From the NCBI GenBank assembly GCA_964345045.1, contig CAYFPM010000002.1:36286-100285 (forward strand): DNA of 64,000 bases, given 5' to 3'. The translations under genes were made by a program, and so were the position numbers. Position 1 is the first letter of the stretch, and each line of letters opens with the position of its first letter. Below the pieces are notes generated by a model, which had not been told where the DNA came from, did not search any database, and saw nothing but the letters and a program-made list of their open reading frames with translations. The stretch comes from an uncultured Gammaproteobacteria bacterium. Its GTDB lineage: Bacteria; Patescibacteriota; Patescibacteriia; Magasanikbacterales; UBA922. Below, one piece after another: positions 2,974 to 56,385 of the stretch.

Positions 2974-3639
2974 ATGAATAATATAGTAAAAGGAATTGGA
3001 GTAGCGGCGGTACTGCTACTAATTGGCCAAGGTTGTGCTAGCCAGCCAGCCGCAAACAACAATATGGAAGCTGGTCACAACGACTCTGCAATGCAAGGAG
3101 AAAGCATGATGAAAAGTGATGACAAAATGACAGAAGGAGACAAAATGGAAAAAACTGGCGACAGCATGATGAAAGATGACGCTATGATGGATAACCACTC
3201 TGGAGATGCCATGATGGCAAGTGACAAAATGGAAAAAGATGGAACAATGATGGAAAGTGGAGAAAAAATGATGAAGGATGATACAATGGAAAAAGAAGAT
3301 AATAAAATGATGGAAAGCGAAAAAGTAAGTAAAGGCAGCTACCAAGAATACAGCAACGATAAACTAGCTTTGGCTAATAATGGAGATGCGGTTATATTTT
3401 TTCACGCATCTTGGTGCCCAACCTGTAGAGCTTTGGACAAAGATATAACCAAAAATTTATCTACTATCCCAAATGGATTAACTATCTTAAAAGCTGATTA
3501 TGACAGCCAAATAGAGCTAAGAAAAAAGTACGGCGTCACTTTTCAACACACTATGGTACAAGTTGATGCTAGTGGCAACCTGATAAACAAATGGAGTGGT
3601 GGCAACACTTTGCAAAGCATTGTGTCTAGAGTTAAATAG
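2974..3639 (+). CDS. Met-rich thioredoxin-fold lipoprotein
   Basis: Signal peptide with lipobox (LIGQGC), a Met-rich DxMMKxD repeat region, and a C-terminal thioredoxin motif FFHASWCPTCRALD. Confidence 0.7.
   Translation: MNNIVKGIGVAAVLLLIGQGCASQPAANNNMEAGHNDSAMQGESMMKSDDKMTEGDKMEKTGDSMMKDDAMMDNHSGDAMMASDKMEKDGTMMESGEKMMKDDTMEKEDNKMMESEKVSKGSYQEYSNDKLALANNGDAVIFFHASWCPTCRALDKDITKNLSTIPNGLTILKADYDSQIELRKKYGVTFQHTMVQVDASGNLINKWSGGNTLQSIVSRVK
3040..3330 (+). repeat. intragenic tandem repeat encoding Met-rich MxxM motifs
   Basis: Recurring gacaaaatggaaaaa / atgatgaa units; the antisense ORF 3019..3345 is an artefact of this repeat. Confidence 0.7.
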
Positions 3640-3664: not shown

Positions 3665-3688
3665 AACCCAGGGCTTTGCCCTGGGTTA
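3665..3688 (+). terminator. intrinsic terminator after the lipoprotein gene
   Basis: Hairpin aaacccagggc-tttg-ccctgggtt followed by a T-rich tract. Confidence 0.55.
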
Positions 3689-3768
3689 CTTATTAAAATA
3701 AAGTTTTTCAAACTCTTCATATTTAACTATACTTAAAAAAATAGCCTACTCTTAACCGATGTGATCAG

Positions 3769-3948
3769 CAGTTGTAGTTACAAAACACTTAAACGTCATC
3801 CTGAATGGAGTGAGTCCAAAGGACGAACGCAAGGAAGGATCTATTCGGACTACCACTGGGATCCTTCTCCCGACTGTGGTCGGGAGAAGGATGACTACAA
3901 TCTACTACGTCACGCTGTAGCTTTAGCGAAGGCGGACTCACTACAACC
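3769..3948. repeat. composite palindromic GTCAT-family element (core 3795..3895, outer inverted repeat gttgtagt/actacaac)
   Basis: Termini gtcatcctga...ggatgac plus an internal 11-bp perfect hairpin cttctcccgac/gtcgggagaag; it shares the gtcatcctga start and gaaggatc/gatccttc core with the copies at 50718 and 56280; the 65-aa ORF 3761..3958 inside it is probably not coding. Confidence 0.6.
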
Positions 3949-3985
3949 TAAAAAATAACCATCTAATTACTAACCACTTAATTAT

Positions 3986-5716
3986 ATGACCCTACTTTTA
4001 GTATCGTTTTTGGCTGGAGTGCTAACCGTGCTAGCCCCGTGTACCTTGCCACTCTTGCCAATTATTGTTGGCCGTACGGCCGACAGCCAATCCAAAAAAA
4101 GACCCCTTATCATTGCCGCCTCGCTCGCGATTGCAATTGTAGTCTTTACTCTACTTCTAAAAGCTTCGACTGCTTTTATAGATATCCCACAAAGTGTGTG
4201 GTCTTATGTGTCAGGTAGTATTATTGGCATCTTTGGACTTGTTTATTTGTTCCCAACTTCTTGGGAAAAATTGTCTACCAAATTTAATTGGTCTGGCTCC
4301 TCTGGAGAACTGCTACAAAAAAGTGCCGAGAAAAAAGGTTTGACTGGAGATATTCTGGTAGGGCTCTCTCTTGGTCCGGTTTTTTCTAGCTGTTCTCCAA
4401 CCTACTTTCTAATTTTGGCTACTGTTCTCCCACAAAACTATGCTACTGGGGTAGTTTACCTAATAGCCTATGCCATTGGTTTATCTCTAATGATGCTTTT
4501 GATTGGGTATCTTGGCCAAAAATTGGTAAGAAGGTTGCAAGGCTTTTCTGATCCTCATGGTAAATTCAAAAGAGGTTTAGGAATTTTGTTTCTCTTAGTT
4601 GGTCTTTTTATTGTAACTGGAGCAGACAAAAAAGTTCAGGCCTTTATTCTTGAAAAAGGTTACTTCGACATTACCAAAATTGAACAAAAATTGTTAACAG
4701 AGCCAATGGCCGAAGATATGGAAGAAGAAATCCCAGAAGTAAGCAGCGCAGCTACCACCAAACAATACCCTCTTTACAAAGAAATTGTTAACCCTTCTGG
4801 ATTTGTAAATAGCGAACCATTTGAACTAAAAGACTTGGTGGGAGAAAAAGTAATTTTGCTAGATATTCTTACCTACAGCTGTATCAACTGCCAACGTACT
4901 TTTCCCTACCTAAATACTTGGTATGAAAAATATAAAGATGCTGGGCTTACTATAGTTGGAATTCACACTCCAGAATTTGCTTTTGAGAAAAAAATAGAAA
5001 ACGTAGAAGACGCTGCCAAAAGATTTGGCCTAGAATTCCCACTGGTGCTAGACAACGATTATGCTACTTGGCGCGCTTATGGCAACCGCTATTGGCCAAG
5101 AAAATATCTAATTGATATTGATGGTAACATTGTTTACGACCACATTGGAGAAGGCGCATACGAAGAAACAGAAAAGAAAATCCAAGAGCTTTTGGAAGAG
5201 CGAATGGAGAGACTAAACCAAGCCATAGTTTTTGAAAAAAGTATCGAAAGACCTGCCGATGCCGAAGAAGTAGACTTTGGAGCACGCCGCAGTAGAGAAA
5301 CTTATTTTGGTTCACTAAGAAACAAAAATCCGGGCTTAACTACAGCTCAAGATGGCAACTTGGTAAGCTTTGCCAAGCCAGAAAATATTAACGCCAATCA
5401 ACTTTACCTAGTAGGAGATTGGGAAATGACTGGTGAATATGCCGAGGCTGTGTCGGAAGATGCTTCTATTATTTTTAACTACAGAGCCAAAAAAGTTTTT
5501 TTGGTACTAAGTAGCGAGGAAGCAGTTCAAGCCGAAGTTTTGGTAGATGGAAAAAAAATTGATTCTGACAAAGGTATTCATGTAGATGAAAATGGATTTG
5601 TAAATGTAGAAAACGAGCAGCTCTATAGACTAATTGAACACGACCAAATAGAAGAGCATACTCTTGAGTTAGAAGTAGAACCAGGCTTGCGCGCCTTTGC
5701 CTTTACCTTTGGTTAA
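3986..5716 (+). CDS. cytochrome c biogenesis CcdA/DsbD-like transmembrane domain fused to a TlpA/ResA-type thioredoxin domain
   Basis: Two membrane Cys motifs (LAPCTLP, SSCSPTYF) typical of the CcdA/DsbD beta domain; the C-terminal domain carries the CxxC motif YSCINCQ in a thioredoxin fold. Confidence 0.8.
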   Translation: MTLLLVSFLAGVLTVLAPCTLPLLPIIVGRTADSQSKKRPLIIAASLAIAIVVFTLLLKASTAFIDIPQSVWSYVSGSIIGIFGLVYLFPTSWEKLSTKFNWSGSSGELLQKSAEKKGLTGDILVGLSLGPVFSSCSPTYFLILATVLPQNYATGVVYLIAYAIGLSLMMLLIGYLGQKLVRRLQGFSDPHGKFKRGLGILFLLVGLFIVTGADKKVQAFILEKGYFDITKIEQKLLTEPMAEDMEEEIPEVSSAATTKQYPLYKEIVNPSGFVNSEPFELKDLVGEKVILLDILTYSCINCQRTFPYLNTWYEKYKDAGLTIVGIHTPEFAFEKKIENVEDAAKRFGLEFPLVLDNDYATWRAYGNRYWPRKYLIDIDGNIVYDHIGEGAYEETEKKIQELLEERMERLNQAIVFEKSIERPADAEEVDFGARRSRETYFGSLRNKNPGLTTAQDGNLVSFAKPENINANQLYLVGDWEMTGEYAEAVSEDASIIFNYRAKKVFLVLSSEEAVQAEVLVDGKKIDSDKGIHVDENGFVNVENEQLYRLIEHDQIEEHTLELEVEPGLRAFAFTFG

Positions 5717-9276: not shown

Positions 9277-9375
9277 AAATTATATTTCTATTTAATTTAA
9301 AGTCCTGTTCACTGTTTACTATTTACTGTTTACAAAAAACAAATCTAATCCTACTCACTACAAACTATCTCACCA

Positions 9376-9418
9376 CGACGTAGCCTTGGCGAAGGCGGGC
9401 TATTAACTCACTACAACC
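9376..9418. repeat. solo copy of the right-end segment of the composite element at 3908..3948
   Basis: gtagccttggcgaaggcgggct...cactacaacc versus gtagctttagcgaaggcggact-cactacaacc; the hairpin is kept by compensatory changes; it overlaps the stop codon of the adaptor gene. Confidence 0.55.
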
Positions 9419-11103
9419 TCTTCACCAACTTCTACTGCACCGGCCGTAGCTACAATACTAGTCAAATTTTCCAAACCGGAAATAATTTGAATTTTGTTTC
9501 CAGAAATTTTTTCTACTTCTACTTCTCTTTTTTCTACTTTGTTTTCTTCGTTCACAGTGTATACAAACTTACCGTCTACTCCTATTTTTACAGCCTCTAG
9601 TGGCAAAAAGATTTCTTGTTCTTCTGTTGGTGTCTTTTGAATTTCCAAACTTACAAATTGTCCAACTACCAATGATTCTGGTTTTTCTGGTAACACAGTA
9701 ATTACCTCTACCTTTTTGGTAATAGGATCAATACTTGGAGCGATATGACTAACCACTGCTTTGTAATCGCCTTCTACCAAAGCTTCGTTGCCAGAAGAAA
9801 TATCTTTCAAGTTACTACTATCTACAAATGTTTTTACTTGCAACCCGTTTACATTAACTACAGATACAACATGCTCTCCACTACTCATTAACTCTCCAAC
9901 TTTGGCGGGCAAAACAGAAACTACACCAGAAATTGGAGATCTAATAACTGTTTTGGACAGTAGGGCTGAAACTTTTTTAACACTAGCTTGACTGCTGGCT
10001 ACTTGAGAATTTTGTACTCGCAAAGCTGCTTCGGCCGAGATGATATCTGCTTCGGCTTGTTTTTCGGTATCGGTCAAATCTTGCACTGCTTTGTTGTAAG
10101 CAATTTCAGTAGTAGACAAACTGGTTTTGGCATTTGCTATATTTTGCAATTGATTGGTAAGCGAAGAATCTTTGGTAGAGACATCGGCTTGAGCAGTTTG
10201 CAAACCAGTCCGCAAACTATCTAAACTAGCTTGATCTAGTGATCCCCCAGTCGGCAAAGCGCTATTTACCATAGCAGTTAACGAAACAAACATATCTCCC
10301 AACTCTACCAAAATTTCGGCAGAATCTTTGGCCATTTTGTCTAACTCTTCGAGACTGGCAGTATTCACAGTTTCCATTAATTGATCCAAGTTTTGTCTTT
10401 TTAATCTTAACTGACGATATTTGGTAGTATTTTGGTTTATAGTAGACGGATCTTGGTTGAATAGTTCTGTTTCAAAAGCATCATTTACTCCTTTGTTATC
10501 TACCCCCAAAATTCTGTCGATAGAAATAAAAGCACTTTTTATACTGCTGTGTACAGAACGCAAAAGAATAGATAAATCTTCGTAAGCATCTTGGACAATC
10601 TGGCTGGTATCGGTATTTTGGCTAATTTTCAAATTATTTTCTGCTGTTTGCAAAACAGCTTTGGCAGCAGCAATATTATTTCCAGCAGTAATTCTGGTTC
10701 TGTCGAGAGCCGCTTGTTGTACCGAAGCTTGAGCCAAATTGGCTTCTAATCCGGCCTGAGCTTGAGCCAAGTCGGCAGATAGGTCAGCACTATTAAAAGC
10801 TACCAAAGTTTGACCAACAGAAACTTGATCACCCAAATTTACATAAACTCTAGCAACTGGAGCAAATACTTCACTTTTTAATTTTACTTGTGCTTTGGAT
10901 TCTACCTGACCATTTACTTCTACTTTGCCTGCAGCATCGTACAAACTAGCCAATTCTATCAATTCGACTGATTTGACTACTTTGGTTGGTTCTTCTTCTA
11001 CTATAGCTTGATTACCAATAACTCTAAAAACAAATAAAATCATAATAGCGACAATCGCCATTACAGGAACGTGTTTCTTCTTTGGTTTTTTGAAAAATTT
11101 CAT
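9403..11103 (-). CDS. efflux RND periplasmic adaptor (membrane fusion protein, HlyD family) with a long coiled-coil hairpin
   Basis: N-terminal TM anchor, a long Ala/Gln-rich coiled coil, and C-terminal beta-barrel/MP domains. Confidence 0.8.
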   Translation of the reverse strand: MKFFKKPKKKHVPVMAIVAIMILFVFRVIGNQAIVEEEPTKVVKSVELIELASLYDAAGKVEVNGQVESKAQVKLKSEVFAPVARVYVNLGDQVSVGQTLVAFNSADLSADLAQAQAGLEANLAQASVQQAALDRTRITAGNNIAAAKAVLQTAENNLKISQNTDTSQIVQDAYEDLSILLRSVHSSIKSAFISIDRILGVDNKGVNDAFETELFNQDPSTINQNTTKYRQLRLKRQNLDQLMETVNTASLEELDKMAKDSAEILVELGDMFVSLTAMVNSALPTGGSLDQASLDSLRTGLQTAQADVSTKDSSLTNQLQNIANAKTSLSTTEIAYNKAVQDLTDTEKQAEADIISAEAALRVQNSQVASSQASVKKVSALLSKTVIRSPISGVVSVLPAKVGELMSSGEHVVSVVNVNGLQVKTFVDSSNLKDISSGNEALVEGDYKAVVSHIAPSIDPITKKVEVITVLPEKPESLVVGQFVSLEIQKTPTEEQEIFLPLEAVKIGVDGKFVYTVNEENKVEKREVEVEKISGNKIQIISGLENLTSIVATAGAVEVGEEVVVS

Positions 11104-23308: not shown

Positions 23309-24155
23309 TCAGCATATTGATCAGTTGGATGCCGAACTCTTGCTTGCTCATGTAATAAAAAAGACACGAGAGTTTGTTATTTCTCATCCAGAATTTTTAC
23401 CTTCAAGTTTTGAGATTTTAAAATTTAGAAGATTTGTAAAAAAAAGACTAAATAACGTACCTTTGGCTTATTTGATTGGTCACAAAGAATTCTTTGGTCT
23501 GGATTTTTTGGTAAACAAACATACTTTGATTCCCAGACCAGATACTGAAATTTTGGTAGAAAAAGTTATTTCAAATATCAAGGAACAAAAAGCAAAAAAA
23601 CAAAATATTCTATTAATAGATGTGGGGACTGGTTCGGGGAATATCCCTGTTTCTATAAAAAAAACAATGGAACAATGGAACAATAAAACAATTACAACTT
23701 ATGCTACAGATATCTCTGCCAAAGCCCTAAAAATAGCCAAAAAGAATGCAAAAAAACATGGAGTAAAAATAGATTTTTTAAAAGGTAATCTTTTGAATCC
23801 GATTTTAAAACAATGGAACAATATAAAAATAGAACAATATAAAAATCTTATAATCACTGCCAACCTACCTTATTTAACCGAAGCTCAATTTGCAAGCGAG
23901 CCTAGCATCCAAAAAGAGCCTAAAACAGCTTTGGTGGCAAACAAGCAAGGCTTGGCACTCTACGAAAAACTCCTAAACCAAATTAAAAAAATAACTAAGA
24001 ACCATGAACTAAGAACTCTAAACTGTTATCTGGAAATAGACCCTACTCAAACCCAAAAAATAAAAACTTTGATAAAACAATATTTACCAAACGCAAACAT
24101 CCAAATTGCCCAGGATTTGGCCGGACATGATAGGGTGGTAAAAATTGAAATTTAA
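23268..24155 (+). CDS. prmC: release factor glutamine methyltransferase (HemK/PrmC)
   Basis: Motifs LIPRPDTE, DVGTGSGNI and NLPY; the exact start is uncertain because it overlaps the upstream ORF. Confidence 0.8.
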   Translation: MLQQKIKTILQKTNQHIDQLDAELLLAHVIKKTREFVISHPEFLPSSFEILKFRRFVKKRLNNVPLAYLIGHKEFFGLDFLVNKHTLIPRPDTEILVEKVISNIKEQKAKKQNILLIDVGTGSGNIPVSIKKTMEQWNNKTITTYATDISAKALKIAKKNAKKHGVKIDFLKGNLLNPILKQWNNIKIEQYKNLIITANLPYLTEAQFASEPSIQKEPKTALVANKQGLALYEKLLNQIKKITKNHELRTLNCYLEIDPTQTQKIKTLIKQYLPNANIQIAQDLAGHDRVVKIEI

Positions 24156-32016: not shown

Positions 32017-32032
32017 AACTTTGTAAGCAAGG

Positions 32033-32108
32033 TAAGTAATAAGCAGATTAAGCAGAGTAAAAATTATTTATGTTACTTACTCTGTCTATTCTGCTTAATC
32101 TGCTTATC
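32033..32108. repeat. AAGCAGATTA(G/A)GCAG palindromic repeat, copy 1
   Basis: taataagcagattaagcagagtaa...ttactctg..ctgcttaatctgcttat inverted arms. Confidence 0.65.
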
Positions 32109-32281: not shown

Positions 32282-34441
<2,160 letters not shown>

Positions 34442-37566: not shown

Positions 37567-37660
37567 CTGTCATTGCGAGGGAACGATAGCGACCGTCGCA
37601 ATCTCTAATACTTTCGTGTGAGATTGCCACGCTCGGCTTTGGCCGAGCTCGCAATGACAG
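37567..37660. repeat. GTCAT-family four-segment palindromic element (gtcattgcgag variant)
   Basis: ctgtcattgcgag...cgcaatctc / gagattgc...ctcgcaatgacag; local hairpins or long-range pairing are both possible. Confidence 0.65.
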
Positions 37661-39570: not shown

Positions 39571-42500
39571 TTATTCATTCAAGAGAATATTCAATTCCTT
39601 CCTAGTATCTTTGTCGAGCGTCTTGGTTACTGGCAAGTCATTATCTTTTTGAAATCTTTCCAAAGCCTCTTCTAAAGTAGTCCCAAAGAAAGGAGTCGTT
39701 TCATAAAGGTAAAAATATTCCATTTCGTGCAAAACCTTTTTCAACTCACTAACATCCTGGTCTTCGTCTTGAAAATTAAGATCTTTTTTAAACGGTCCAA
39801 TATCAGCTTCTGTATAGTCCTCTCCTCCCGGATATTTGTCGAACAAAGTTTGATCCAAATAAATCAGATCATCATACTCATAACCAAGCTTGGAAAAAGT
39901 ATAATCTGTGTTGAATTTCCTCCAGCTAGAATCTTCGAATATATAAGAGTAGCTAGACTCTGGGAATCTTACAATTTCTCCTTCTCTTGGTACATAATTC
40001 TTACCAGGCAAAACTGGGCCAGCAGGATCTTCTGGAATTTGATCCAAGATCTCTTGTGCCTCTATTACCACATCGCCCAAAGAAGAAAAATGAGTAAAGA
40101 ATAAATCTTCATTTTCTACTAATCTTTTGGTACAATTTTCTGTTATTAAATATATTTGCCCAGGCAAGGCAGCGGCATATGGTTTGTCTGCTTCTAGTGG
40201 GCAAACTTCGTTATTTGTATTACCACCATCCAAATCTCTAGTTTCAAAAAACGGGAAAATTGATTTTATTCCAACGATTATAGAATCAAATATAGAGTCT
40301 TCTTCGTACAAAGAAGAAGTTCTGGCTGTGTTATCGCTTTTTCTCAATATCTCACTCAAATCTTCTATGTTCTCAATTTCTTGCTCTGTTAATTCTATAG
40401 ATACTTCTTCATCATAATAAATCCCACTAAAAAGTTTGAATCTAACATAAATTACTTTGTCACCAATCCCTTCCGACAAAACCCAAGGTAGCGAATCTTG
40501 ATAAGGGAAAACAAAGGCATTTTGAAAAGTAATATCTTCTGAAATCATAATTTCTTCAGCATTGTCTATAGCAAAACTCAACAAGACTTTTCTAGAATTA
40601 GTTTTTTCTTCGCCCCCATTTATGGTAACAGCCGACATAGCTACTCCGTTTTCTCCTATAGAGTACTGCACAGAAGAACCTCTCGATACTGCTCCCCCGC
40701 TAACCGAAACCGAATCAGATTCTGCACTAACCACAGCATCTTCTTCTACCGGTGGATAATAAACAATAGCAACGTCTTGGAAAACAGGACTAGATGTAGT
40801 GATCCCGTCTGTGGTTAAAGCTGCTTGATATTGAATATATCTATGTCCATCTGTTACACAACCATTGGCAGAGATATCGTCTCCACTAGCTACAGCAGTA
40901 CAAGAAGCAAAATCTGTAGCACCGCTCATATCACTACTATTATCTGTTCTAACTTTTACTGTGGTGCTAGCAGAGTTGCCAGTAGCTGTATAAGTAAGTG
41001 TCCCCCAAGTTTCGGCCTCTGTAGTATCGAATATTGCAGAAGTAAGAGTCGCCGAACTATTTACTCGAGATTCTACACTACCCACAGAATAAAAATTAGC
41101 TGGATCAGATTGGTTGTTGTATTCCGTTTCAATATACGTAGCGCTTAGAGTAGACGGAGCTAGACGGATTTCATCCAAAGTTCCATCAAATTGACGAACA
41201 GTATCATTGGGATGAGCACCAATTCTAATATCACAACCCGCATCCCCAATAAGCGAGCCAGCAGCAGTATCTCTTTTTAGATAACTACTTACGGCGACAC
41301 CATCTATATAAAATTTAGAATCTGTAGCTCCCAAACTATTGGCATAGGTAAATACAACATGGTGCCAAGATGTTTTGGGGGTAAAATCTGTATCGGAATT
41401 TACAGCTTCGGCATCCGAAGTAGTGTATTCTCTACCCCACATAAAAACCGGATTAGCTGTAGCTGGTTGGCTATCCCAGGCCAAGTAAACATCGCCTGTA
41501 TCGTCGTATTGAATCTCCCAACCACCGCTATTACAACTTCCCAAATATTTGGTAATAAGCCTACCACCATATTGATCAGATCCAGGAGTAGCGTCTCCTT
41601 TTATCCAAAAACTTACCGACATATCGGTCAAGTCGTCTATAGTAGAATCAGTAGCTACATCCAAAACCCTACCGGCGCTAGATGGGTTCTCCACAAATTG
41701 GATAGCGTTACCCAATTGTCCGCTAACAGAATGACTGCTAGAAAAATTAGCATTGGTTGCATTACCATGGTTACTATTGGCCGAATCACAAACTTCGAAA
41801 CCAGCACCACTACAACTACCGTCGGTGCTAATACTAGGGTCTTCTTCGAAGTGCCAAACAGCAGCATAAGCAGAACTCCATGTACTAGCATTATTTGATA
41901 CGTTTGCACTAGCATTACCATAATAAACATAAATATCTGTATCGGCAGCACTACTAACACTTGGCACATTGACCCAAGCTTGCATGGTGCTAGCGGTAGT
42001 GGATACAGATACAACTTCTCTATTTAGGACAGTTGTTCCATCCGAACTGGTGAAAACCAAATCCGTACCATTAGTATTTACATTAGAAAAAAAGTGAGAG
42101 TCAAAATTATCTTCGGTAACCAAAACTGGAAAATTGGATTGAGTAGAAGAAACTTGGGTAGAGTCTATAGTTATTTTTCTTCTATAGAGCCAAGCCGTGT
42201 CGTACCAACCAGTAGTGGTGGCAGCTTCGAATTGACCAGTAGTGGTGGTATAAGCTGTAGTGGCAGACTGGTATTGGTTGCTAGTATTTGTACCGACTCC
42301 ACTAGACCAATCGGTCTGGGTCCAGGTAGAACCGCTGGCATAAGCCAAAGAAACATTGCCCACCAAACCATAGCTAACAGCCAAGGTAAATGCCAAATAA
42401 GAAAAAGCTGTCAACGAAGTGAGCGCAATAGAGGTTTTGCGTCTTTTTCTGTATAGTTGATAAGAAAAACCTTCTTTATTAAATAGAGTTGGATCTATCT

Positions 42501-42675
42501 TGTAAGTTTTTTTGAAATAAAGAGGAAAAGAGACCAAATTAAGAACTAATTCATGAAAAGACATTTTCAAAAATTTTGGAATTCTAAAAACATGATCTTT
42601 GTGAGAAAGTTCTTTTTTTGAAGCAACTACATTGACAGAGTATTTGTCGATTAAACCTAACCATTTTTTCTTCAT
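39571..42675 (-). CDS. large membrane-anchored surface protein with DUF2341 + LamG (concanavalin A-like) + C-terminal peptidoglycan-binding domain, paralog 1
   Basis: N-terminal TM, then WYDTAWLYRRKITID...NFPVLV (DUF2341-like), then a LamG-like region (AVWHFEE...SFWIK...HHVVFTY...LDEIRL), then a PG_binding_1-like C-terminus; the start is set at M42 (MKKKWLGL) by alignment with the paralog; the ORF-track start at 42798 overlaps the next gene. Confidence 0.75.
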   Translation of the reverse strand: MKKKWLGLIDKYSVNVVASKKELSHKDHVFRIPKFLKMSFHELVLNLVSFPLYFKKTYKIDPTLFNKEGFSYQLYRKRRKTSIALTSLTAFSYLAFTLAVSYGLVGNVSLAYASGSTWTQTDWSSGVGTNTSNQYQSATTAYTTTTGQFEAATTTGWYDTAWLYRRKITIDSTQVSSTQSNFPVLVTEDNFDSHFFSNVNTNGTDLVFTSSDGTTVLNREVVSVSTTASTMQAWVNVPSVSSAADTDIYVYYGNASANVSNNASTWSSAYAAVWHFEEDPSISTDGSCSGAGFEVCDSANSNHGNATNANFSSSHSVSGQLGNAIQFVENPSSAGRVLDVATDSTIDDLTDMSVSFWIKGDATPGSDQYGGRLITKYLGSCNSGGWEIQYDDTGDVYLAWDSQPATANPVFMWGREYTTSDAEAVNSDTDFTPKTSWHHVVFTYANSLGATDSKFYIDGVAVSSYLKRDTAAGSLIGDAGCDIRIGAHPNDTVRQFDGTLDEIRLAPSTLSATYIETEYNNQSDPANFYSVGSVESRVNSSATLTSAIFDTTEAETWGTLTYTATGNSASTTVKVRTDNSSDMSGATDFASCTAVASGDDISANGCVTDGHRYIQYQAALTTDGITTSSPVFQDVAIVYYPPVEEDAVVSAESDSVSVSGGAVSRGSSVQYSIGENGVAMSAVTINGGEEKTNSRKVLLSFAIDNAEEIMISEDITFQNAFVFPYQDSLPWVLSEGIGDKVIYVRFKLFSGIYYDEEVSIELTEQEIENIEDLSEILRKSDNTARTSSLYEEDSIFDSIIVGIKSIFPFFETRDLDGGNTNNEVCPLEADKPYAAALPGQIYLITENCTKRLVENEDLFFTHFSSLGDVVIEAQEILDQIPEDPAGPVLPGKNYVPREGEIVRFPESSYSYIFEDSSWRKFNTDYTFSKLGYEYDDLIYLDQTLFDKYPGGEDYTEADIGPFKKDLNFQDEDQDVSELKKVLHEMEYFYLYETTPFFGTTLEEALERFQKDNDLPVTKTLDKDTRKELNILLNE

Positions 42676-42745
42676 ATGGTTTTTGGCTATTATAATATGA
42701 TTTCTAAATTTATTATACATAATTGATAAAAACGTAGAAATATAA

Positions 42746-43267
42746 TTATTTCTCCATTTTTTTGACAGTGATTTTTGCCAGTTCAGCCTTCCAGCCAATT
42801 AGATTGGCCAACAATTGAACAAAGGATGATACACCTGCTATGGCCAAAACCAACCAAAAATACCAGGTAATTGGTAATAGATAATATAGAGCCACGGTAA
42901 AAACAGATATCCATACCCCTACACACCACGGACAACCCAAGAGATCGGCGAAAAGTCTTCTTAGTCCTTTTTTAGGTTTTGATCTATATGTATAAACTAT
43001 TCCTTTTTCTTTTTTTTCTGATTTTACCAAAAACATATCCCTAATAAACTGGGACACTTGATCGTATACCAATAACCTAGTTAATCTAAAAGCAGCAAAA
43101 ACCAAAATAGTAAACTCCCAGATTGTTATATCGTTAAGATCTTTTATTGAAAAATTTGTATAAAAAGATAGCAAATAAGTAAAAAATATTACTAATGCAA
43201 AAAATATTATTGTGAGAAGAAAGCTTAAAAAAACTCCACTTCCCTTCTCCTTTTTTGTAACCTCCAT
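42746..43267 (-). CDS. DUF1360 family membrane protein
   Basis: 4 TM helices with an LLGCPWCVGVW motif. Confidence 0.65.
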   Translation of the reverse strand: MEVTKKEKGSGVFLSFLLTIIFFALVIFFTYLLSFYTNFSIKDLNDITIWEFTILVFAAFRLTRLLVYDQVSQFIRDMFLVKSEKKEKGIVYTYRSKPKKGLRRLFADLLGCPWCVGVWISVFTVALYYLLPITWYFWLVLAIAGVSSFVQLLANLIGWKAELAKITVKKMEK

Positions 43268-44133: not shown

Positions 44134-47085
44134 TTAGCTATTTAAAATGGTATTCAGCAGTGCTCTGGTAGCTCTATCCAAATTTCCTGTTTCTTGCAAT
44201 TTGTTTTTTCTTTGGAATCTTTTTAGAGCATCTTCTAGATTGGTACTAAAAAATGGGGTGGTTTCATATTGTTGAAAATGACCTTGTTTGTGAAGTAAAG
44301 CTTTTAGGTCGACTACATCTTGGTGAGAATCTTGAAATTTTAAATTCTTTAGATAAGGTCCTATGTCCGCCTCGGTGTAAGTTTCGCCAACGACATATTT
44401 ACCAAATACGCTCTTGTCTATCAACAAAATACTATTGTAACTATGTCCAAGCTGACGAAGGGTAAACTGAGAATTAAAACTTCTCCATTTGTTGTCTTCC
44501 AATATATATATATTAGAATCATCCGAAACTTTTGCCAAAACTCCTTCTTCTAATTCTATTTCTGGGTTAAGTGTCATCGGTCCGGCTGTATCCAAGTTGA
44601 TTTGATCTAACTCTGCTTGGGTAACAAATTGGACAGCTCCCAAAGAAAGATTATAACTATCAAAAGAATATTTATCTAAAAACGGTCTCTTGGTACATTC
44701 TGGCGTGATGAAAAATAGAGTGGCATCTACATAAGAGCGATGAACTTCTCCAATAGTCGCAGGGCAAACAAAATCATCTGCATAGGCTCCTCCTCCATTT
44801 GAATTTGCACCTGTAGAAGTATCCCCCTCATCTCCATTTGGGATCACATTCATAGCGCCTTCTTCAAATACCAAGGTCTTTTCTACATCATAATAAAAAC
44901 CATTATATAATTTGAATCTTACATACAAATTCTTTTCACCATAACCTTCGGAAAGTGTCCATTCCATTTCTTCTGCAAAAGGAATAAACTTGGCATTGGC
45001 AAAAGTAATATCTTCGGAAATGGCTACAGATTCTACATCTCGTAAACCATACTTCAACAAGACTTTATTTTCATCACTTTCTATTTTTTCAATTGTGACA
45101 GCTTCTAATGGAATTCCATCTTTGCCTACACTTCTGGAAACAGAAGTACTAGCCCCAGCTCCCCCAGCTACACTACCAGTATTGGAAGTGGTACTAGAAG
45201 CCGAAGGCACGGTATAAGCAATAGAAATATCCTGAAAAACCGGAGAAGAGGTAGTGATACTATCTGTAGTAAGAGTAACTTCGTATTGTACATATCTATC
45301 CCCATCGGTTACACAACCATTGCCAGAGATATCTGTCCCCGAAGTAATAGTGGTACAAGAACCAAAAGCTGTTGCTCCACTCATATCACTACTACTATCT
45401 GTTCTTACTTTTACAGTAGTACTGGCAGAGTTCCCAGTAGCAGTGTAGGTCAAATTACCCCAACTTTGGGCATTGGTGGTATCAAAAATGGCAGAAGTTA
45501 ATACTGCTGTGCTGGTAACAGCGTATTCCAAAGCAGAGACAGAATAAAAAGTCGAAGGACTATTTTGATTGTTGTATTCGGTTTCTACATACTGTGGAGT
45601 AACTACACTGGTAGCAAGACGAAGTTCGTCCAAACCACCATGAAAAGGTCTATCGTCCCCACCACGAGCACCAATATACAAATCACAAGCAGCATCACTC
45701 ACATGTGCACCAGCACCAGCCACATTTGATGGGTAATAAGCAGCTTCCACACCATTTATAAAAAATCTACCACTGGTACCTGTGTAATTATCATCCCAAG
45801 TAAATACCACATGTTGCCAAGCATCTTCTGTAACAGTTAGGTTATCGGTAATAAAGAACGAATCAGTAGTTGCATTATCTTTGTCCCACACCAATACCTG
45901 ATCGTACCCACTTGGCTGACTGCTACCATCCCAAACATTTCCGTTGTTATCATACAAAAGTTCCCAACCTTCTAAACAAACTTTCTCAAAAATAGTATGG
46001 TTATTGTCCGAAGAAAAGGCACTATCCGGGTTCATCCAAAAAGAAACCGAATAATCACCTAGATCGTCTATGCTACTACCACTAAAGGCTTTTAATCTTT
46101 TGCTTGTACCAAATCTATAACCAGTACCAAAAGGAGAACTAGTCGCATAAGAGGCATCGAAACCAGTAGATGTAGCATGGTTGGCATTTCCAGCCGAATC
46201 ACAAGTAGAATATATTCCTCCACCACAGGCACCATCGGTAGTAGCAGTCGGGTCTTCGTCCAAATGCCAAACTGCAGCATAGGTGGAACTCCAAACTGTA
46301 GTATCGTCAGTTTGAGCGTCTCCAGTATCACTATTACCAAAATACATATAAATATCTGTATCGGCGTCGTCTGGCAAAGAACTAATTCTTACCCAAGCCT
46401 CGAATTGAGAAGTGCTAGAGTTGAAAGCTACAATTTCTCTGGGTAAGAGAGTTCCACTACTATCTGTAAATAGAATGTCTGCTCCGGTATTTTGGATAAC
46501 ATTGTTAAAAAAGTCGGCTCCAAGATTATCTTCTGTAATAAGCACTGGAAAATTGGACAGTGTAGAAGAAACTTGATTTTGGTCTATAGTAATTTTTTGT
46601 CTGTAGCCCCAAGCTGTGTTATACCAACCTGTAGTAGTGGCCGCTTCGAATTGTCCGGTAGTGGTAGTATAAGCAAAACTAACAGATTCGTACTGATTGC
46701 CAGTATCTATCCCTACTCCACCAGACCAATCGGTCTGGGTCCAAGAAGTACTAGTAGCCAAGGCTGTAGACAAATTGGAAAATAAACTAAAACCTAAACT
46801 GATTGCCAGGTAAGAAAATACTAATAACGAGCTAACCCCGAATGAAAGTCGACGTTTTCTATAATGATGAAACGAAAAACCTTCATTATTAAAAATCTTA
46901 TGGTCTAATCTATGGGTTCGCCTTATATAAAGAGGGACAGACAAAAAACCGATCGCAATTTCGTGTACCAAAATATTTAGTAAGTGTAAAAAAGCCAAAA
47001 TAGGGTGTTTATCCTTTAACCCCTTTTTGACCAAATCCACTCTACTAGATAAAAAGTGGAGTAATTTAAGCCATTTATTATTCAT
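44134..47085 (-). CDS. large DUF2341 + LamG + peptidoglycan-binding membrane protein, paralog 2
   Basis: 983 aa, collinear with the protein at 39571..42675 (for example GQFEAATTTGWYNTAWGYRQKITID, SATAFGSCT, a C-terminal PG-binding-like domain). Confidence 0.75.
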   Translation of the reverse strand: MNNKWLKLLHFLSSRVDLVKKGLKDKHPILAFLHLLNILVHEIAIGFLSVPLYIRRTHRLDHKIFNNEGFSFHHYRKRRLSFGVSSLLVFSYLAISLGFSLFSNLSTALATSTSWTQTDWSGGVGIDTGNQYESVSFAYTTTTGQFEAATTTGWYNTAWGYRQKITIDQNQVSSTLSNFPVLITEDNLGADFFNNVIQNTGADILFTDSSGTLLPREIVAFNSSTSQFEAWVRISSLPDDADTDIYMYFGNSDTGDAQTDDTTVWSSTYAAVWHLDEDPTATTDGACGGGIYSTCDSAGNANHATSTGFDASYATSSPFGTGYRFGTSKRLKAFSGSSIDDLGDYSVSFWMNPDSAFSSDNNHTIFEKVCLEGWELLYDNNGNVWDGSSQPSGYDQVLVWDKDNATTDSFFITDNLTVTEDAWQHVVFTWDDNYTGTSGRFFINGVEAAYYPSNVAGAGAHVSDAACDLYIGARGGDDRPFHGGLDELRLATSVVTPQYVETEYNNQNSPSTFYSVSALEYAVTSTAVLTSAIFDTTNAQSWGNLTYTATGNSASTTVKVRTDSSSDMSGATAFGSCTTITSGTDISGNGCVTDGDRYVQYEVTLTTDSITTSSPVFQDISIAYTVPSASSTTSNTGSVAGGAGASTSVSRSVGKDGIPLEAVTIEKIESDENKVLLKYGLRDVESVAISEDITFANAKFIPFAEEMEWTLSEGYGEKNLYVRFKLYNGFYYDVEKTLVFEEGAMNVIPNGDEGDTSTGANSNGGGAYADDFVCPATIGEVHRSYVDATLFFITPECTKRPFLDKYSFDSYNLSLGAVQFVTQAELDQINLDTAGPMTLNPEIELEEGVLAKVSDDSNIYILEDNKWRSFNSQFTLRQLGHSYNSILLIDKSVFGKYVVGETYTEADIGPYLKNLKFQDSHQDVVDLKALLHKQGHFQQYETTPFFSTNLEDALKRFQRKNKLQETGNLDRATRALLNTILNS

Positions 47086-47695: not shown

Positions 47696-47777
47696 CGTCA
47701 TTCCCAGCTTGACTGGGAATCCAGATAATGAGCAAGTCCTTGCACATAACTGGATTCCCGTTTGCACGGGAATGACG
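47696..47777. repeat. GTCAT-family four-segment palindromic element (cgtcattccc variant)
   Basis: cgtcattccca/tgggaatccag ... ctggattccc/gggaatgacg. Confidence 0.65.
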
Positions 47778-47823
47778 ATTTAAGGAACCATGCACTACAA
47801 ACCAAAACTATGAACTATTGGCT

Positions 47824-48381
47824 ATGAACAATAAACTAATAATTGGAATCGTAGGACAAATGGCTGCGGGCAAAGGAACCGCCGCTAATTATTTGAAAGA
47901 AAAGTATGGTGCCAGCACTTATACTTTTTCAACTATGCTAGGTGATGTGCTAGATAGATTTCATCTAGAAAGAAACCGAGACAATTTTATAAAAATATCC
48001 GAGCAAATGCGCTCTACCTTTGGTGAAGACATAATGGCCAAAACCATGGCCAATGACGTAAAAAAAGATAGTAATAATCTAATTGTAGTAGAGGGAGTAA
48101 GGAGAGACGCTGACATAGAATATCTAAGCCAAATGGAGGGATTTGTGCTCGTAGAAATTTTTGCTAATATGGAAAAAAGATTTGAAAGAACCAAAAAGCG
48201 TGGTGAAAAAATAGATGATAATGACAAAACTTTTGAAGAGTTCGAAGCAGATCACCAAAGATCTACCGAACTTTCTACAGTAGAAGTTGCCAAACAAGCC
48301 ACAATTAGAATAGATAATAATGGCACACTTGAAGAACTTTATACACAGCTAGACAGTTTAATTAAGCAAAATAAGGATTAA
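47824..48381 (+). CDS. P-loop nucleoside monophosphate kinase-like protein (adenylate/dNMP-kinase fold), specificity unknown
   Basis: P-loop GQMAAGKGT; lies inside the dNTP-metabolism gene run; the ORF-track start at 47818 is TTG, and the ATG at 47824 is more likely. Confidence 0.6.
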   Translation: MNNKLIIGIVGQMAAGKGTAANYLKEKYGASTYTFSTMLGDVLDRFHLERNRDNFIKISEQMRSTFGEDIMAKTMANDVKKDSNNLIVVEGVRRDADIEYLSQMEGFVLVEIFANMEKRFERTKKRGEKIDDNDKTFEEFEADHQRSTELSTVEVAKQATIRIDNNGTLEELYTQLDSLIKQNKD

Positions 48382-48426
48382 GCAGATTAGGCAGGTTAAG
48401 AATTTTACTTACTCTGCTTAATCCTG
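48375..48426. repeat. AAGCAGATTAGGCAG palindromic repeat, copy 2
   Basis: ggattaagcagattaggcag...tctgcttaatcc; overlaps the kinase stop codon and lies 10 nt before dut. Confidence 0.65.
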
Positions 48427-49802: not shown

Positions 49803-49861
49803 ATGGTTCATAGCCAATCGCCAATAGTTAATAGTTTATAATTTATATTTAAGGGGGAATT

Positions 49862-50215
49862 ATGAAAACATATAAAGATCTTGATGTGTGGAAAAAGTCC
49901 ATAGAACTAGTTATAGAACTGTATAGGATTACAAAACTATTGCCCATTGAAGAAAAGTTTGGGCTGGTATCACAAATGCGGCGTTGTACTGTATCGATCC
50001 CCTCAAACATTGCAGAAGGTTATGCTAGAAAAAATAGAAAAGAAAACGCCCAATTTGTAAATATTGCATTCGGTTCTGGTACAGAATTGGAAACCCAAAT
50101 AATTATTGTAAAAAAGTTAAATCTAATAAAACAAGAAGAATTTACAAAAGCAGATCAATTATTGGACAGTGTATTACGAATGCTTTATAGGTATCGTGAA
50201 TCACTTTACCAATAA
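49862..50215 (+). CDS. four-helix-bundle protein (23S rRNA intervening-sequence protein family)
   Basis: Motifs DLDVWKKS...SIPSNIAEGYAR; strong SD aggggg; flanked by roughly 25-30 bp inverted repeats. Confidence 0.8.
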   Translation: MKTYKDLDVWKKSIELVIELYRITKLLPIEEKFGLVSQMRRCTVSIPSNIAEGYARKNRKENAQFVNIAFGSGTELETQIIIVKKLNLIKQEEFTKADQLLDSVLRMLYRYRESLYQ

Positions 50216-50239
50216 ACGATTGGCTATGAACTATTGGCT

Positions 50240-50719
50240 ATGCACCAAATATCTCTAGTTGCCGCAATTTCCAAAAACAACTGTATTGGCAAAGACAATA
50301 CCCTGCCTTGGGATATCCCGGCAGATATGAAAAGGGTAAAAGAATTAACCATTGGTAGAAATGTAATCATGGGACGCAAAACTTGGGAATCAATCCCAGA
50401 AAAATTCCGTCCATTACCAAAAAGAAAAAATATTATTATTACCCGAAACAATAATTTGGAAGTGCCAGAAGGAGTAGAAGTTTATAATAGTATCGAAGAA
50501 GCCATTGAAAGGCATAAAGGTGAAGAGATTGTTGGTTTTGGAGGTCAAAGAATTTTTGAAGAAATGATGCCAATAGCCGATGTGCTCTACATTACCCACG
50601 TCGATCAAGAAGTAGACGAGTGCCAAGCTTATTTCCCAGAGATAGATCAAAAAATTTGGCAAGAAACAGAAAGAGAAGATTTCGATGGCTATTCGTTTGT
50701 AACTTATAAAAAAACCTAG
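50240..50719 (+). CDS. folA: dihydrofolate reductase
   Basis: Region ISLVAAISKNNCIGKDNTLPW...GRKTWESIP; the ORF-track start at 50234 is TTG, and the ATG at 50240 is more likely. Confidence 0.9.
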   Translation: MHQISLVAAISKNNCIGKDNTLPWDIPADMKRVKELTIGRNVIMGRKTWESIPEKFRPLPKRKNIIITRNNNLEVPEGVEVYNSIEEAIERHKGEEIVGFGGQRIFEEMMPIADVLYITHVDQEVDECQAYFPEIDQKIWQETEREDFDGYSFVTYKKT

Positions 50720-50798
50720 TCATCCTGAGCGAAACGCAGTGGAGCCGAAGGATCCCAGTGGGAGTCCGAAGAGATCCTTCGCTCAGCTCAGGATGACT
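50718..50798. repeat. GTCAT-family palindromic element with 16-bp terminal inverted repeats
   Basis: agtcatcctgagcgaa ... ttcgctcagctcaggatgact with an inner gaaggatc/gatccttc hairpin; overlaps the folA stop codon. Confidence 0.7.
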
Positions 50799-52378: not shown

Positions 52379-52417
52379 AATGTACCGACGACGTGATAAT
52401 CTAACCTGTGAATAAAC

Positions 52418-52480
52418 AATAAGCAGATTAGGCAGAATAAGCAGTTTTTGCTTAATTCTTACTCTGCCTAATCTGCTTAC
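52418..52480. repeat. AAGCAGATTAGGCAG palindromic repeat, copy 3
   Basis: aagcagattaggcag pairs perfectly (15 bp) with ctgcctaatctgctt; 16 nt upstream of gatB. Confidence 0.7.
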
Positions 52481-52495
52481 TACTTACAAAAAGCT

Positions 52496-55214: not shown

Positions 55215-56273
55215 ATGAAAGACTCTCAACTAATCCTAAAAAATGGAATTACCTTCCGAGGCTACTCCCCTCTTTGGCAAAAAGACTTCTACCCAGGCGA
55301 GGTTGTGTTTACTACTGGCATGACTGGTTATGTAGAGTCTCTTACCGATCCGTCGTACGCCGGCCAAATCCTTACCTTTACCTACCCCCTAATTGGCAAC
55401 TACGGCGTACCAAGTAAAACAAAGTGGGAATCAAAAAAAATCCATGCTCGTGGAGTGATAATAAGCGAAACTACCGATAACTGGAGCCACAGCGCTGCCA
55501 AGTTGTCTTTTTTGGAATGGCTAAAAGAACAAAGTGTACCAATAATAACAGGGGTAGACACCAGAGAATTAACAAAATTGCTCCGAGATCACGGCGTGAT
55601 GCTCGGAGGTATTGATAGTTCTCTGTCATTGCGAGGAGCGGAGCGACGTGGCAATCTCATTGATCCGAACAAAACCAATTTAGTCGCCGAAGTCTCGATC
55701 AAAAAAACCAAAATTTATGGCAAAGGTAAAAAAACTTTGATCGCTGTAGACTGTGGCATGAAAGAAAATATTATTCGTGATTTACAAAAATTTAAGTGGA
55801 CCATAAAGCGTGTACCTTTTGATTATGATTACACCAATGAAAAATACGATGCCGTGTTTGTTTCCAATGGACCAGGTGACCCAAAGATGGCCAAAACCAC
55901 TATAGAAATTTTGAAAAAAGCAATGGCATCCAAAAAACCAATTTTTGGAATTTGCCTAGGCTCACAAATTATAGGGCTAGCGGCTGGAGCCAAAACCTAC
56001 AAACTTCCCTATGGTCACCGAGGCCAAAACCAACCATGCCAAAGTAGCCAAGATGAAACTTGTCTAATAACTAGCCAAAATCATGGCTATGCCATAAAAG
56101 AAAGTACTTTGCCAAAAGGTTGGTATGTTAATTTTAAAAATTTAAACGATAATTCTGTAGAAGGAATTGCCCACAAAAAATTGCCGTTTTTCTCAGTCCA
56201 GTTTCATCCAGAAGCTGCTCCAGGCCCTACCGATGCTAGCAATTTGTTTGAACAGTTTTATGATTTAGTCTAA
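55215..56273 (+). CDS. carA: carbamoyl-phosphate synthase small subunit
   Basis: N-terminal CPSase small-chain domain plus a class-I GATase domain (GICLG, FHPEA). Confidence 0.9.
   Translation: MKDSQLILKNGITFRGYSPLWQKDFYPGEVVFTTGMTGYVESLTDPSYAGQILTFTYPLIGNYGVPSKTKWESKKIHARGVIISETTDNWSHSAAKLSFLEWLKEQSVPIITGVDTRELTKLLRDHGVMLGGIDSSLSLRGAERRGNLIDPNKTNLVAEVSIKKTKIYGKGKKTLIAVDCGMKENIIRDLQKFKWTIKRVPFDYDYTNEKYDAVFVSNGPGDPKMAKTTIEILKKAMASKKPIFGICLGSQIIGLAAGAKTYKLPYGHRGQNQPCQSSQDETCLITSQNHGYAIKESTLPKGWYVNFKNLNDNSVEGIAHKKLPFFSVQFHPEAAPGPTDASNLFEQFYDLV
55623..55658 (+). repeat. in-frame copy of a GTCATTGCGAG-family half-element inside carA
   Basis: ctgtcattgcgagg-agcggagcgacgtg-gcaatctc versus the intergenic ctgtcattgcgagg-gaacgatagcgaccgtc-gcaatctc at 37567. 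Confidence 0.35.
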
Positions 56274-56279
56274 TTTTTA

Positions 56280-56367
56280 AGTCATCCTGAGCGAAGTGAA
56301 GGATCCCAGTTAAAGTAAGAGATTCTTCGACTTCACTCTGCGTTGCTCCGTTTCGCTCAGAATGACT
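56280..56367. repeat. GTCAT-family palindromic element between carA and carB
   Basis: agtcatcctgagcgaa ... ttcgctcagaatgact; its terminal atgact supplies the spurious ATG at 56362. Confidence 0.7.
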
Positions 56368-56385
56368 AAATACTCCGCAAAACCT

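Follow-up and report, generated by a model that had tools for sequence, protein, structure and literature searches.

The CGTC-tagged superfamily of repetitive extragenic palindromes (REPs) was defined by Di Nocera et al. (2013, BMC Genomics 14:522; PMC3733652). Its units carry the tag CGTC (often TGTC; variant CCTC), a stem of 8-9 bp starting A-T, T-A, a loop of 4-5 nt and a short tail; they occur mainly as head-to-head dimers with spacers of 20-100 nt, include intragenic copies, have no dedicated transposase, and take in Neisseria dRS3/NTS and Rickettsia RPE-4/RPE-6 (PMC3733652). The Neisseria NTS hairpins (CGTCATTCCCGCGMAVGCGGGAATCYRG) and the related hairpins termed Ssn-related motifs (SRMs) flank genes for single-domain GIY-YIG proteins (Ssn) of about 94 amino acids (aa) (PMC11893778). 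SsnA binds the NTS hairpin only as single-stranded DNA (ssDNA) and cuts a few nucleotides upstream (PMC11893778; Nat Commun 16:2388). Binding depends critically on the C that follows the palindrome and cutting on the three bases that precede the palindrome, natural transformation is modulated by the system, and the published search pattern for SRMs is HGTCWYN(0-2)YYVSBRHN(0-5)WNVSBRGN(0-2)RNCYNB (PMC11893778). Here, we analyzed a palindromic block at positions 3769-3948 of a 64,000-nt stretch of contig CAYFPM010000002.1 (the window), a low-GC metagenomic contig (ENA ERZ930068, PRJEB17505) whose proteins most resemble those of Candidatus Magasanikbacteria and other Patescibacteria. The block is very probably a cluster of CGTC-type REP hairpin repeats rather than a dedicated RNA or protein element, and is made up of three units: one degenerate, one intact and one of a sister design.

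The block sits in the 346-nt spacer between a thioredoxin-like gene (trx; 2974-3639, + strand) and a ccdA-like gene encoding a DsbD_TM/CcdA-redoxin-thioredoxin fusion (3986-5716, +), and its GC content is 0.53, compared with about 0.3 in the flanks. Its left and central parts form a dimer, E1 (3794-3896), an inverted pair with the tags facing outward and the spacer TATTCGGACTACCACTGG between the units. The left unit (3794-3841, +), recognized in the sequence and by its alignment with dimers E2 and E3 described below, reads CGTC-ATCC...GGAT-C, that is, a CGTC tag, ATCC...GGAT stem arms and a final C; it is degenerate, its apical part being swapped for a 29-nt insert that holds a small GTCC-AAA-GGAC hairpin. 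The right unit (3859-3896, −) reads AGTC-ATCCTTCTCCCGAC-CACA-GTCGGGAGAAGGAT-C, with a perfect 14-bp stem and a 4-nt loop, and is very stable as DNA (-16.3 kcal/mol, z -7.9). The inner arms and spacer, GAAGGATC-TATTCGGACTACCACTGG-GATCCTTC (3834-3867; from repeat and pattern searches), are found again inverted at 50747-50780 with 94% complementarity over 34 nt, and the pattern search gave two matches in the window versus 0.00 expected. The third hairpin, of the GTAGC (H2) type, occupies 3908-3937 (+; CGTC-ACGC-T-GTAGC-TTTA-GCGAA-G-GCG-GAC). CGTC tags thus stand at 3794-3797 in the left unit and at 3908-3911 in the third hairpin, and the right unit is tagged AGTC. The third hairpin has the GTC and lacks the C after the palindrome. 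It lies within a 56-nt element (3894-3949, +) running from ACTACAA to CTCACTACAACCT, in full ACTACAA-N7-CGTC-ACGC-T-GTAGC-TTTA-GCGAA-G-GCG-GAC-TCACTACAACCT, which is supported by a covariance-model match and by alignment to a second copy at 9357-9419.

Both designs recur within the window, which contains seven GTCAT-type loci (units or dimers), six of them extragenic, and two GTAGC-type loci. E1, E2, E3, E4 and E6 are tag-outward dimers of 81-103 nt each, and the intact dimers are all far more stable as DNA than shuffled sequences (z -3.1 to -7.8). In every GTCAT-type unit of the window that was checked, a C, the base on which SsnA binding depends most, directly follows the stem on its 3' side (GTC-AT...AT-C), and the units outside the block are tagged TGTC, CGTC or AGTC. 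E2 (50718-50798; AGTCATCCTGAGCGAA...CTCAGGATGACT; z -5.7) and E3 (56280-56367; z -3.1) belong to the same subfamily as E1. E2, whose flanking genes were identified by Pfam, occupies exactly the spacer between folA and tmk: the final A and G of the TAG stop codon of folA also belong to its tag, and the ATG of tmk follows 13 nt past its end. E3 lies in the carA-carB spacer, and within the region 56280-56386 the mechanically called start of carB (ATG 56362) is the ATG of E3's own terminal ATGAC; the gene caller of the source contig and the conserved N-terminus of CarB favor ATG 56386. E4 (37568-37659) has TGTC tags and ATTGC/GCAAT stems (TGTCATTGCGAG...CTCGCAATGACA) and folds as DNA to -28.9 kcal/mol (z -6.6). 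E6 (47696-47777; z -7.8) is built of near-canonical Neisseria-type NTS units (CGTCATTCCCAGCTTGACTGGGAATCCAG ... CTGGATTCCCGTTTGCACGGGAATGACG), nearly the same design as the NTS of Neisseria meningitidis (CGTCATTCCC-N8-GGGAATCCAG), which is striking in a Patescibacteria-type genome. The published SRM pattern has two matches in the window, compared with 0.13 per window in Markov controls: the right unit of E6 (47750-47777, −) and a match at 55287 (−) that is no repeat unit. In addition, there are two solo TGTC-tagged units, which like E4 and E6 came from a looser search, namely E5 (32291-32330, −), in a divergent spacer, and E7 (55624-55658, +; TGTCATTGCGAGGAGCGGAGCGACGTGGCAATCTC), which lies in-frame inside carA (55215-56273) and there encodes LSLRGAERRGNL, at a linker where human CPS1 is about 6 residues shorter in alignment.

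The second copy of the GTAGC-type element had been noted before at 9376-9418; it is real and longer, spanning 9357-9419 (+; hairpin 9373-9401), with a covariance match and 81% column identity to 3886-3955. The only window matches of R1, a covariance model derived from unrelated genomes, are at 3903-3943 (35.9 bits, E about 4e-6) and 9366-9406 (35.0 bits, E about 6e-6). Direct CTCACTACAA repeats (9354 and 9407) flank this second copy, which overlaps the stop codon (9403-9405) of a membrane-fusion-protein gene (9403-11103, −); the last codons of that gene (EVVVS and the stop) come from the right-hand repeat.

Beyond the window, the GTAGC-type pattern GTAGCNTTNGCGAAGGCGG matches at least 120 stretches in species-representative genomes of many phyla, including Acidobacteriota, Verrucomicrobiota, Planctomycetota, Bacteroidota, Patescibacteria and Alphaproteobacteria, a count to be read with the caveat that 17 specified bases in 596 Gb could yield tens of random matches. 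Outside the specified bases, an upstream CGCC is conserved in at least 90% of the sequences and is preceded by a C-T-n-G-(T/C) context. The outermost free stem pair covaries (UA 44, CG 39, GC 4, AU 3), the loop-closing pair is C..G in 75 sequences and T..A in 38, and the covariation score was reached by none of 500 shuffles. For the GTCAT type, the pattern GTCATNNNGAGCGAAGCGANNNATC matches at least 120 metagenome stretches and 96 viral-contig stretches. Its free NNN/NNN triplets are complementary in 234 of 254 units and form at least eight different stems, against about 5% complementarity expected for unconstrained positions. GTC is preceded by T in 225 of the 254 units and by C in 22, and the usual layout is a tag-outward dimer with a median length of about 90 nt. 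The stems of these hairpin families have been kept by compensatory change across phyla. Tandem arrays occur in both types, and a hairpin of one type can sit within the loop of the other type (loci L073 and L110). A further nesting case was seen in the flank beyond the window end (L358, 17481-17530), where a GTAGC-type hairpin carries a GAGCGAAGCG-like loop insert (GCCACGCCGTAGCTTGGAGCGAAGCGCAAAGCGAAGGCGGGCA).

As RNA, the 196-nt region containing the block folds to -63.8 kcal/mol on the + strand (z -4.0 versus dinucleotide shuffles) and to -71.5 kcal/mol on the − strand (z -5.5), and no shuffle equaled the real fold on either strand. The preliminary description of the block had listed nested complementary segments, all of which are found in the sequence: GTCATCC (3795) and GGATGAC (3889-3895), AGTGAGTCC (3809-3817) and GGACTCACT (3934-3942), GAAGGATC and GATCCTTC (as GAAGGATC-N18-GATCCTTC, 3834-3867), and GTTGTAGT and ACTACAAC (3940-3947), with only GTTGTAGT shifted, to 3771-3778 rather than 3769. 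The perfect hairpin that it gave as 11 bp is present and is in fact 14 bp long (ATCCTTCTCCCGAC/GTCGGGAGAAGGAT, 3859-3892, −). Its mutually exclusive folds are sound as far as the pairings go, since the minimum free energy (MFE) structure accounts for only about 1% of the ensemble and competing pairings are therefore real. They are simply the outcome of several inverted copies of one set of short arms in adjacent positions: the ATCC/GGAT arms occur four times and can pair within their own unit or with the partner unit, and the right-end pieces ACTACAAC and GGACTCACT have complements further left.

A cis-regulatory RNA switch in the 5' leader of the ccdA-like gene would fit the strong RNA fold, the low frequency of the MFE structure and the plausible alternative folds. 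A promoter-like TTTTCA-17-TATACT (3705-3733, +), called by a consensus scan only, which is in itself no evidence for function, would, if used, place the composite in a leader of about 250 nt; in addition, many REPs are considered transcribed by Di Nocera et al. (PMC3733652), and one relative has a hairpin dimer in the same spacer. However, a switch is very unlikely. Four relatives, with CcdA fusion proteins 70-73% identical to the one encoded here, keep the trx-ccdA pair with spacers of 86-128 nt, compared with 346 nt in the window. Three of these four spacers lack any such element and the fourth holds a different CGTC-tagged dimer (CGTCATCTCGAGCGA...TCGAGATGACG), and the block is therefore no conserved leader element of ccdA; repeat units have been gained in the present lineage or lost in the relatives. 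The same units also occur downstream of folA, in the carA-carB spacer, within carA and in divergent spacers, the − strand folds better than the + strand, and the family has no orientation preference relative to genes: by crude gene calls, GTAGC-type hairpins are sense in 21 cases, antisense in 17, convergent in 17 and divergent in 12, and those within predicted ORFs (open reading frames) lie half on each strand. Searches against Rfam 15 at gathering and permissive thresholds, covering the window, the region and 14 related loci, found no family for either the GTCAT or the GTAGC type and nothing else of relevance. The preliminary suggestions of a regulatory RNA switch or a structured small RNA are thus not supported, given the missing element in three of the four relatives, the unrelated contexts and both orientations of the units, and the blank Rfam result; the evidence points to an element acting at the DNA level rather than the RNA level. 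The idea that the GUA/GAA internal loop is an RNA motif of sarcin-ricin-like or loop-E-like kind was also considered and set aside, given the lack of strand bias and a known partner that acts on DNA.

That the block encodes a 65-aa protein or a stand-alone small RNA is scarcely credible. The uninterrupted ORF (3761-3958, +) and the stable structure are what such a proposal could call upon; among 5.8 billion clustered proteins, however, the ORF has no homolog but itself, it contains no Pfam domain, and the repeat units recur in other frames and on other strands. No promoter-plus-terminator pair surrounds the block and, again, Rfam offers no match. A terminator-like hairpin after the thioredoxin-like gene (3665-3687) was called by a consensus scan on the − strand only. 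The ORF is a translation of repeats, which bears out the earlier view of it as a probable artefact.

The preliminary description also raised the option of a miniature transposable element with inverted repeats (MITE). Its repeat component stands, with modules recurring in the window and in many genomes; the MITE label does not. In its explicit form, this explanation would make the whole of 3771-3947 a single MITE with the termini GTTGTAGT/ACTACAAC and the 9357-9419 copy a solo end. The + strand MFE fold does contain the 8-bp terminal pairing, AGTGAGTCC (3809) provides a further match, to the neighboring part of the right end, and the right ~60 nt are present again at 9357-9419. The outer complementarity is marginal, however, being equaled in 13 of 500 shuffles and in 62 of 500 when long gaps are allowed, and GTTGTAGT (3771-3778, +) may represent an outer stem or a remnant of an inverted copy and is of doubtful significance. 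No direct repeat surrounds the block, neither the window nor its flanks contain another full copy, and the interior units occur independently elsewhere. H2 hairpins elsewhere have locus-specific flanking direct repeats of 8-11 nt more often than controls (8.3% vs 1.2%), which favors a MITE, but the direct repeats at the two H2 copies here share one sequence and are therefore parts of the element rather than target duplications. In addition, none of 76 related dimers has a target-site duplication (offsets 0-3, lengths 1-8). A single MITE is accordingly quite improbable, and because of these 76 dimers and the marginal outer 8-bp "terminal repeat", the composite is better termed a REP-type tagged hairpin cluster.

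In other genomes, small nuclease genes are found next to such units. Nineteen ORFs have GTCAT units on both sides, and two of them encode GIY-YIG proteins of about 110 aa. A profile search of all fetched loci recovered five small GIY-YIG genes directly sandwiched by GTCAT units, at loci that had been fetched by DNA pattern alone; in two of the five, the ORF enters the inverted unit and takes the unit's TGA as its stop. A protein-first scan of viral contigs yielded seven GIY-YIG loci (six independent), all with flanking palindromic repeats, five of which are of the GTCAT type. This small GIY-YIG family is very large, with at least 7,998 clusters scored, mostly of 93-111 aa and carrying names such as "GIY-YIG nuclease family protein"; the proteins found here have Pfam GIY-YIG as their only assignment and UPF0213 BH0048 as their best PDB relative. 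The association of GTCAT units with nuclease genes is a rediscovery of the result of Chenal et al. (2025). On two viral contigs (L347 and L350), the palindrome found on either side of the Ssn-like GIY-YIG genes is a different one (GGCGTGGATGCCCGGCACAAGGCCGGGCACGGG), which suggests separate nuclease/hairpin pairs.

A classical REP/REPIN mobilized by RAYT, an IS200/IS605-type tyrosine transposase, has some points in common with the block: inverted doublets with a spacer resemble REPINs, target duplications are lacking, and the third hairpin contains GTAG. The tags, however, are CGTC, TGTC or AGTC, no unpaired 5' GT(A/G)G tag adjoins the palindrome, and the GTAG of the third hairpin lies within the outer stem as part of an internal loop. 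With the Escherichia coli RayT as the query, no homolog was found in about 80 kb of this genome. The same query recovered four IS200/RAYT-like ORFs in about 2.3 Mb of related loci, and in three of the four (L236 excepted) the nearest unit is at least 0.7 kb away. No transposase was tied to the CGTC REPs by Di Nocera et al. (PMC3733652), and the genes flanked by units are small GIY-YIG genes, which leaves mobilization by RAYT with very little probability.

Collectively, the placement of the dimer in the CGTC-tagged REP superfamily is well supported, and its units are SRMs in architecture. The units are most likely passengers in the trx-ccdA spacer, and the structure observed there is most likely a by-product of juxtaposed inverted units; the element tells nothing special about ccdA regulation. 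Judging from the literature, each unit would fold during ssDNA phases such as replication, transformation, and phage or conjugative transfer, and a cognate Ssn-type GIY-YIG nuclease would then bind the hairpin with its flanking C and cut a few nucleotides 5' of the tag. Such a nuclease-hairpin interaction, rather than an RNA function, would account for the conservation and spread of the family. If the spacer is transcribed, the ccdA leader would also contain RNA hairpins, whose effects on mRNA stability would be incidental at most. For the present organism, this mechanism is drawn from the literature and from other genomes, and the chance that an Ssn-nuclease step operates in it may be put slightly below even.

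Several observations weigh against the interpretation as a CGTC-type, Ssn-related cluster. The left unit of E1 alone is no more stable as DNA than shuffles (z -0.12). The degenerate SRM pattern from the literature matches none of the three units of the block, nor does it match the abundant GAGCGAAGCGA-apex class, which flanks GIY-YIG genes; because it misses these canonical units, the pattern is narrower than the family. The third hairpin does not begin its stem with A-T, and no description of it was found in the open literature searched, so its filing under CGTC depends on its tag and design. No Ssn-like GIY-YIG gene occurs in the window and 16 kb of flanks (L001 and L358; about 80 kb in total), and the nuclease partner therefore remains putative here. 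A 10-kb extension past the window revealed one more GTAGC-type variant and other hairpin families and no nuclease gene. The relatives are distant, so that gain and loss of the units are indistinguishable, the data contain no direct demonstration of mobility, and the orientation counts share the crudeness of the gene calls.

The GTAGC-apex hairpin is the only part of the block with some novelty. One proposal is that the GTAGC class (TGTC/CGTC tag, CGCC/GGCG stem, apex GTAGC-YTTR-GCGAA) is an undescribed sister class of the CGTC/Ssn hairpins, and that each class marks a separate specificity group of GIY-YIG ssDNA nucleases; this is possible, although on balance doubtful. The very abundant class with a GA-GC-GAA-GC-GA apex could have the same status. 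Both apices are nearly invariant across at least 10 phyla and viral contigs while the stems covary, and neither class is captured by the SRM pattern, by Rfam or by the sequences printed in the open literature searched. Literature searches with the unit sequences as strings returned unrelated primer matches or nothing. An anecdotal link to a nuclease comes from one locus (L040), where a GTAGC hairpin lies 7 nt upstream of the start of a short GIY-YIG type of about 80 aa. The protein-first scan of viral contigs with this short type found phage genes of 34-36% identity only, without flanking hairpins.

For annotation, such clusters matter in several ways. They spawn spurious ORFs, such as the 65-aa one, and false start codons, such as carB 56362; they touch or overlap the stop codons of folA and of the membrane-fusion gene (9403) and can sit in-frame in essential genes (carA). 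The present case extends the known range of the CGTC-tagged REP/Ssn-motif family to viral contigs and to a small genome of Patescibacteria type, and the published search pattern misses large classes of it, those with the GAGCGAAGCGA apex and the GTAGC apex. If the additional classes have nucleases of their own, the catalog of site-specific ssDNA cutters would be larger, and if the sister-class proposal is true, even genomes of about 1 Mb from the candidate phyla radiation (CPR) would carry several nuclease-target families side by side.

Other repeats were noticed in the same material. An AT-rich palindromic family (TAAGCAGATTAGGCAG...CTGCCTAATCTGCTTA) occupies three spacers of the window (32024-32100, 48363-48423 and 52404-52487) and may represent bidirectional terminators or another repeat family. 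Short tandem or dispersed spacer repeats of an 8-nt type (AACAATGG; GAACTATTGGCTATGAAC and its inverse) lie at 23653-23846, 47803-47850, 49804-49839 and 50212-50247, and in other phyla GTAGC-type hairpins have comparable runs of heptamers or octamers next to them (L051, L055, L091 and L108). Two large paralogous genes of about 1000 aa (39571-42798 and 44134-47085, both −) share stretches of 74-78% identity 4.4-4.5 kb apart. In the 10 kb beyond the window end, other GC-rich spacer hairpins (CCTCCCCCTAGTAGGGGGAGG, CTCTCCCCTACAAGGGGAGAG and CTCCCCCTATCAGGGGAAG) are located at L358 10909-11016 and 13730-13850. On a 46.8-kb viral contig that gave five separate loci (IMG/VR 2808606664_000001), a 169-aa ORF (L311, 1180-2563) has on either side tandem arrays of 20-nt half-units (TTGTCATGTTGAGCCTCTAT), inverted relative to each other and interspersed with full dimers.

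Among the described systems, the CGTC REPs share with the cluster the unpaired 4-nt tag, the short tail behind the stem, the head-to-head, tag-outward dimers, the multi-copy and mostly extragenic distribution with occasional in-frame intragenic copies, the lack of a dedicated transposase gene and, as regards both E1 units, the AT...AT stem ends. The cluster differs in its longer and more variable stems and apices (a 14-bp stem and a 29-nt insert here; the GA-GC-GAA-GC-GA apex in the wider family), in a left unit that keeps ATCC/GGAT only around the insert, in a third hairpin that starts A-C-G-C, and in one unit tagged AGTC. The locus is also a trimer, whereas clusters are called rare by Di Nocera et al., and the host is of Patescibacteria/CPR type, outside the five phyla of that study, with copies also on viral contigs. 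With the SRM/NTS hairpins, the units have in common the design of HGTC, W-Y, palindrome and C and the grouping around genes; the window unit at 47750-47777 matches the SRM pattern and is nearly a Neisseria NTS, and in other genomes the units directly flank single-domain GIY-YIG genes of about 95-110 aa.

The resemblance to the other systems is more partial. Like the REP/REPIN-RAYT and BIME elements of Enterobacteria and Pseudomonas, the units form short, GC-rich, extragenic inverted doublets that are able to fold as a long hairpin, with no target duplication, with spacer mosaics, and with a single-copy nuclease gene flanked by its own repeats. However, the units bear a tag other than GTAG, their associated enzyme is a nuclease of the GIY-YIG type and not an HUH tyrosine transposase, and conservation of the apical motifs extends across phyla, in contrast to the lineage-specific sequences of REPs. 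MITEs such as Correia/NEMIS, ERIC and Nezha are likewise small, structured, multi-copy and intergenic and can be co-transcribed with neighboring genes, but the block lacks a target-site duplication and a related insertion sequence, and its terminal inverted repeats are unconvincing. The composite itself is extragenic, unlike the Rickettsia RPE; the likeness to RPE concerns the neighboring carA copy (55624-55658), which lies in-frame in an essential gene and adds a short peptide in a variable linker.

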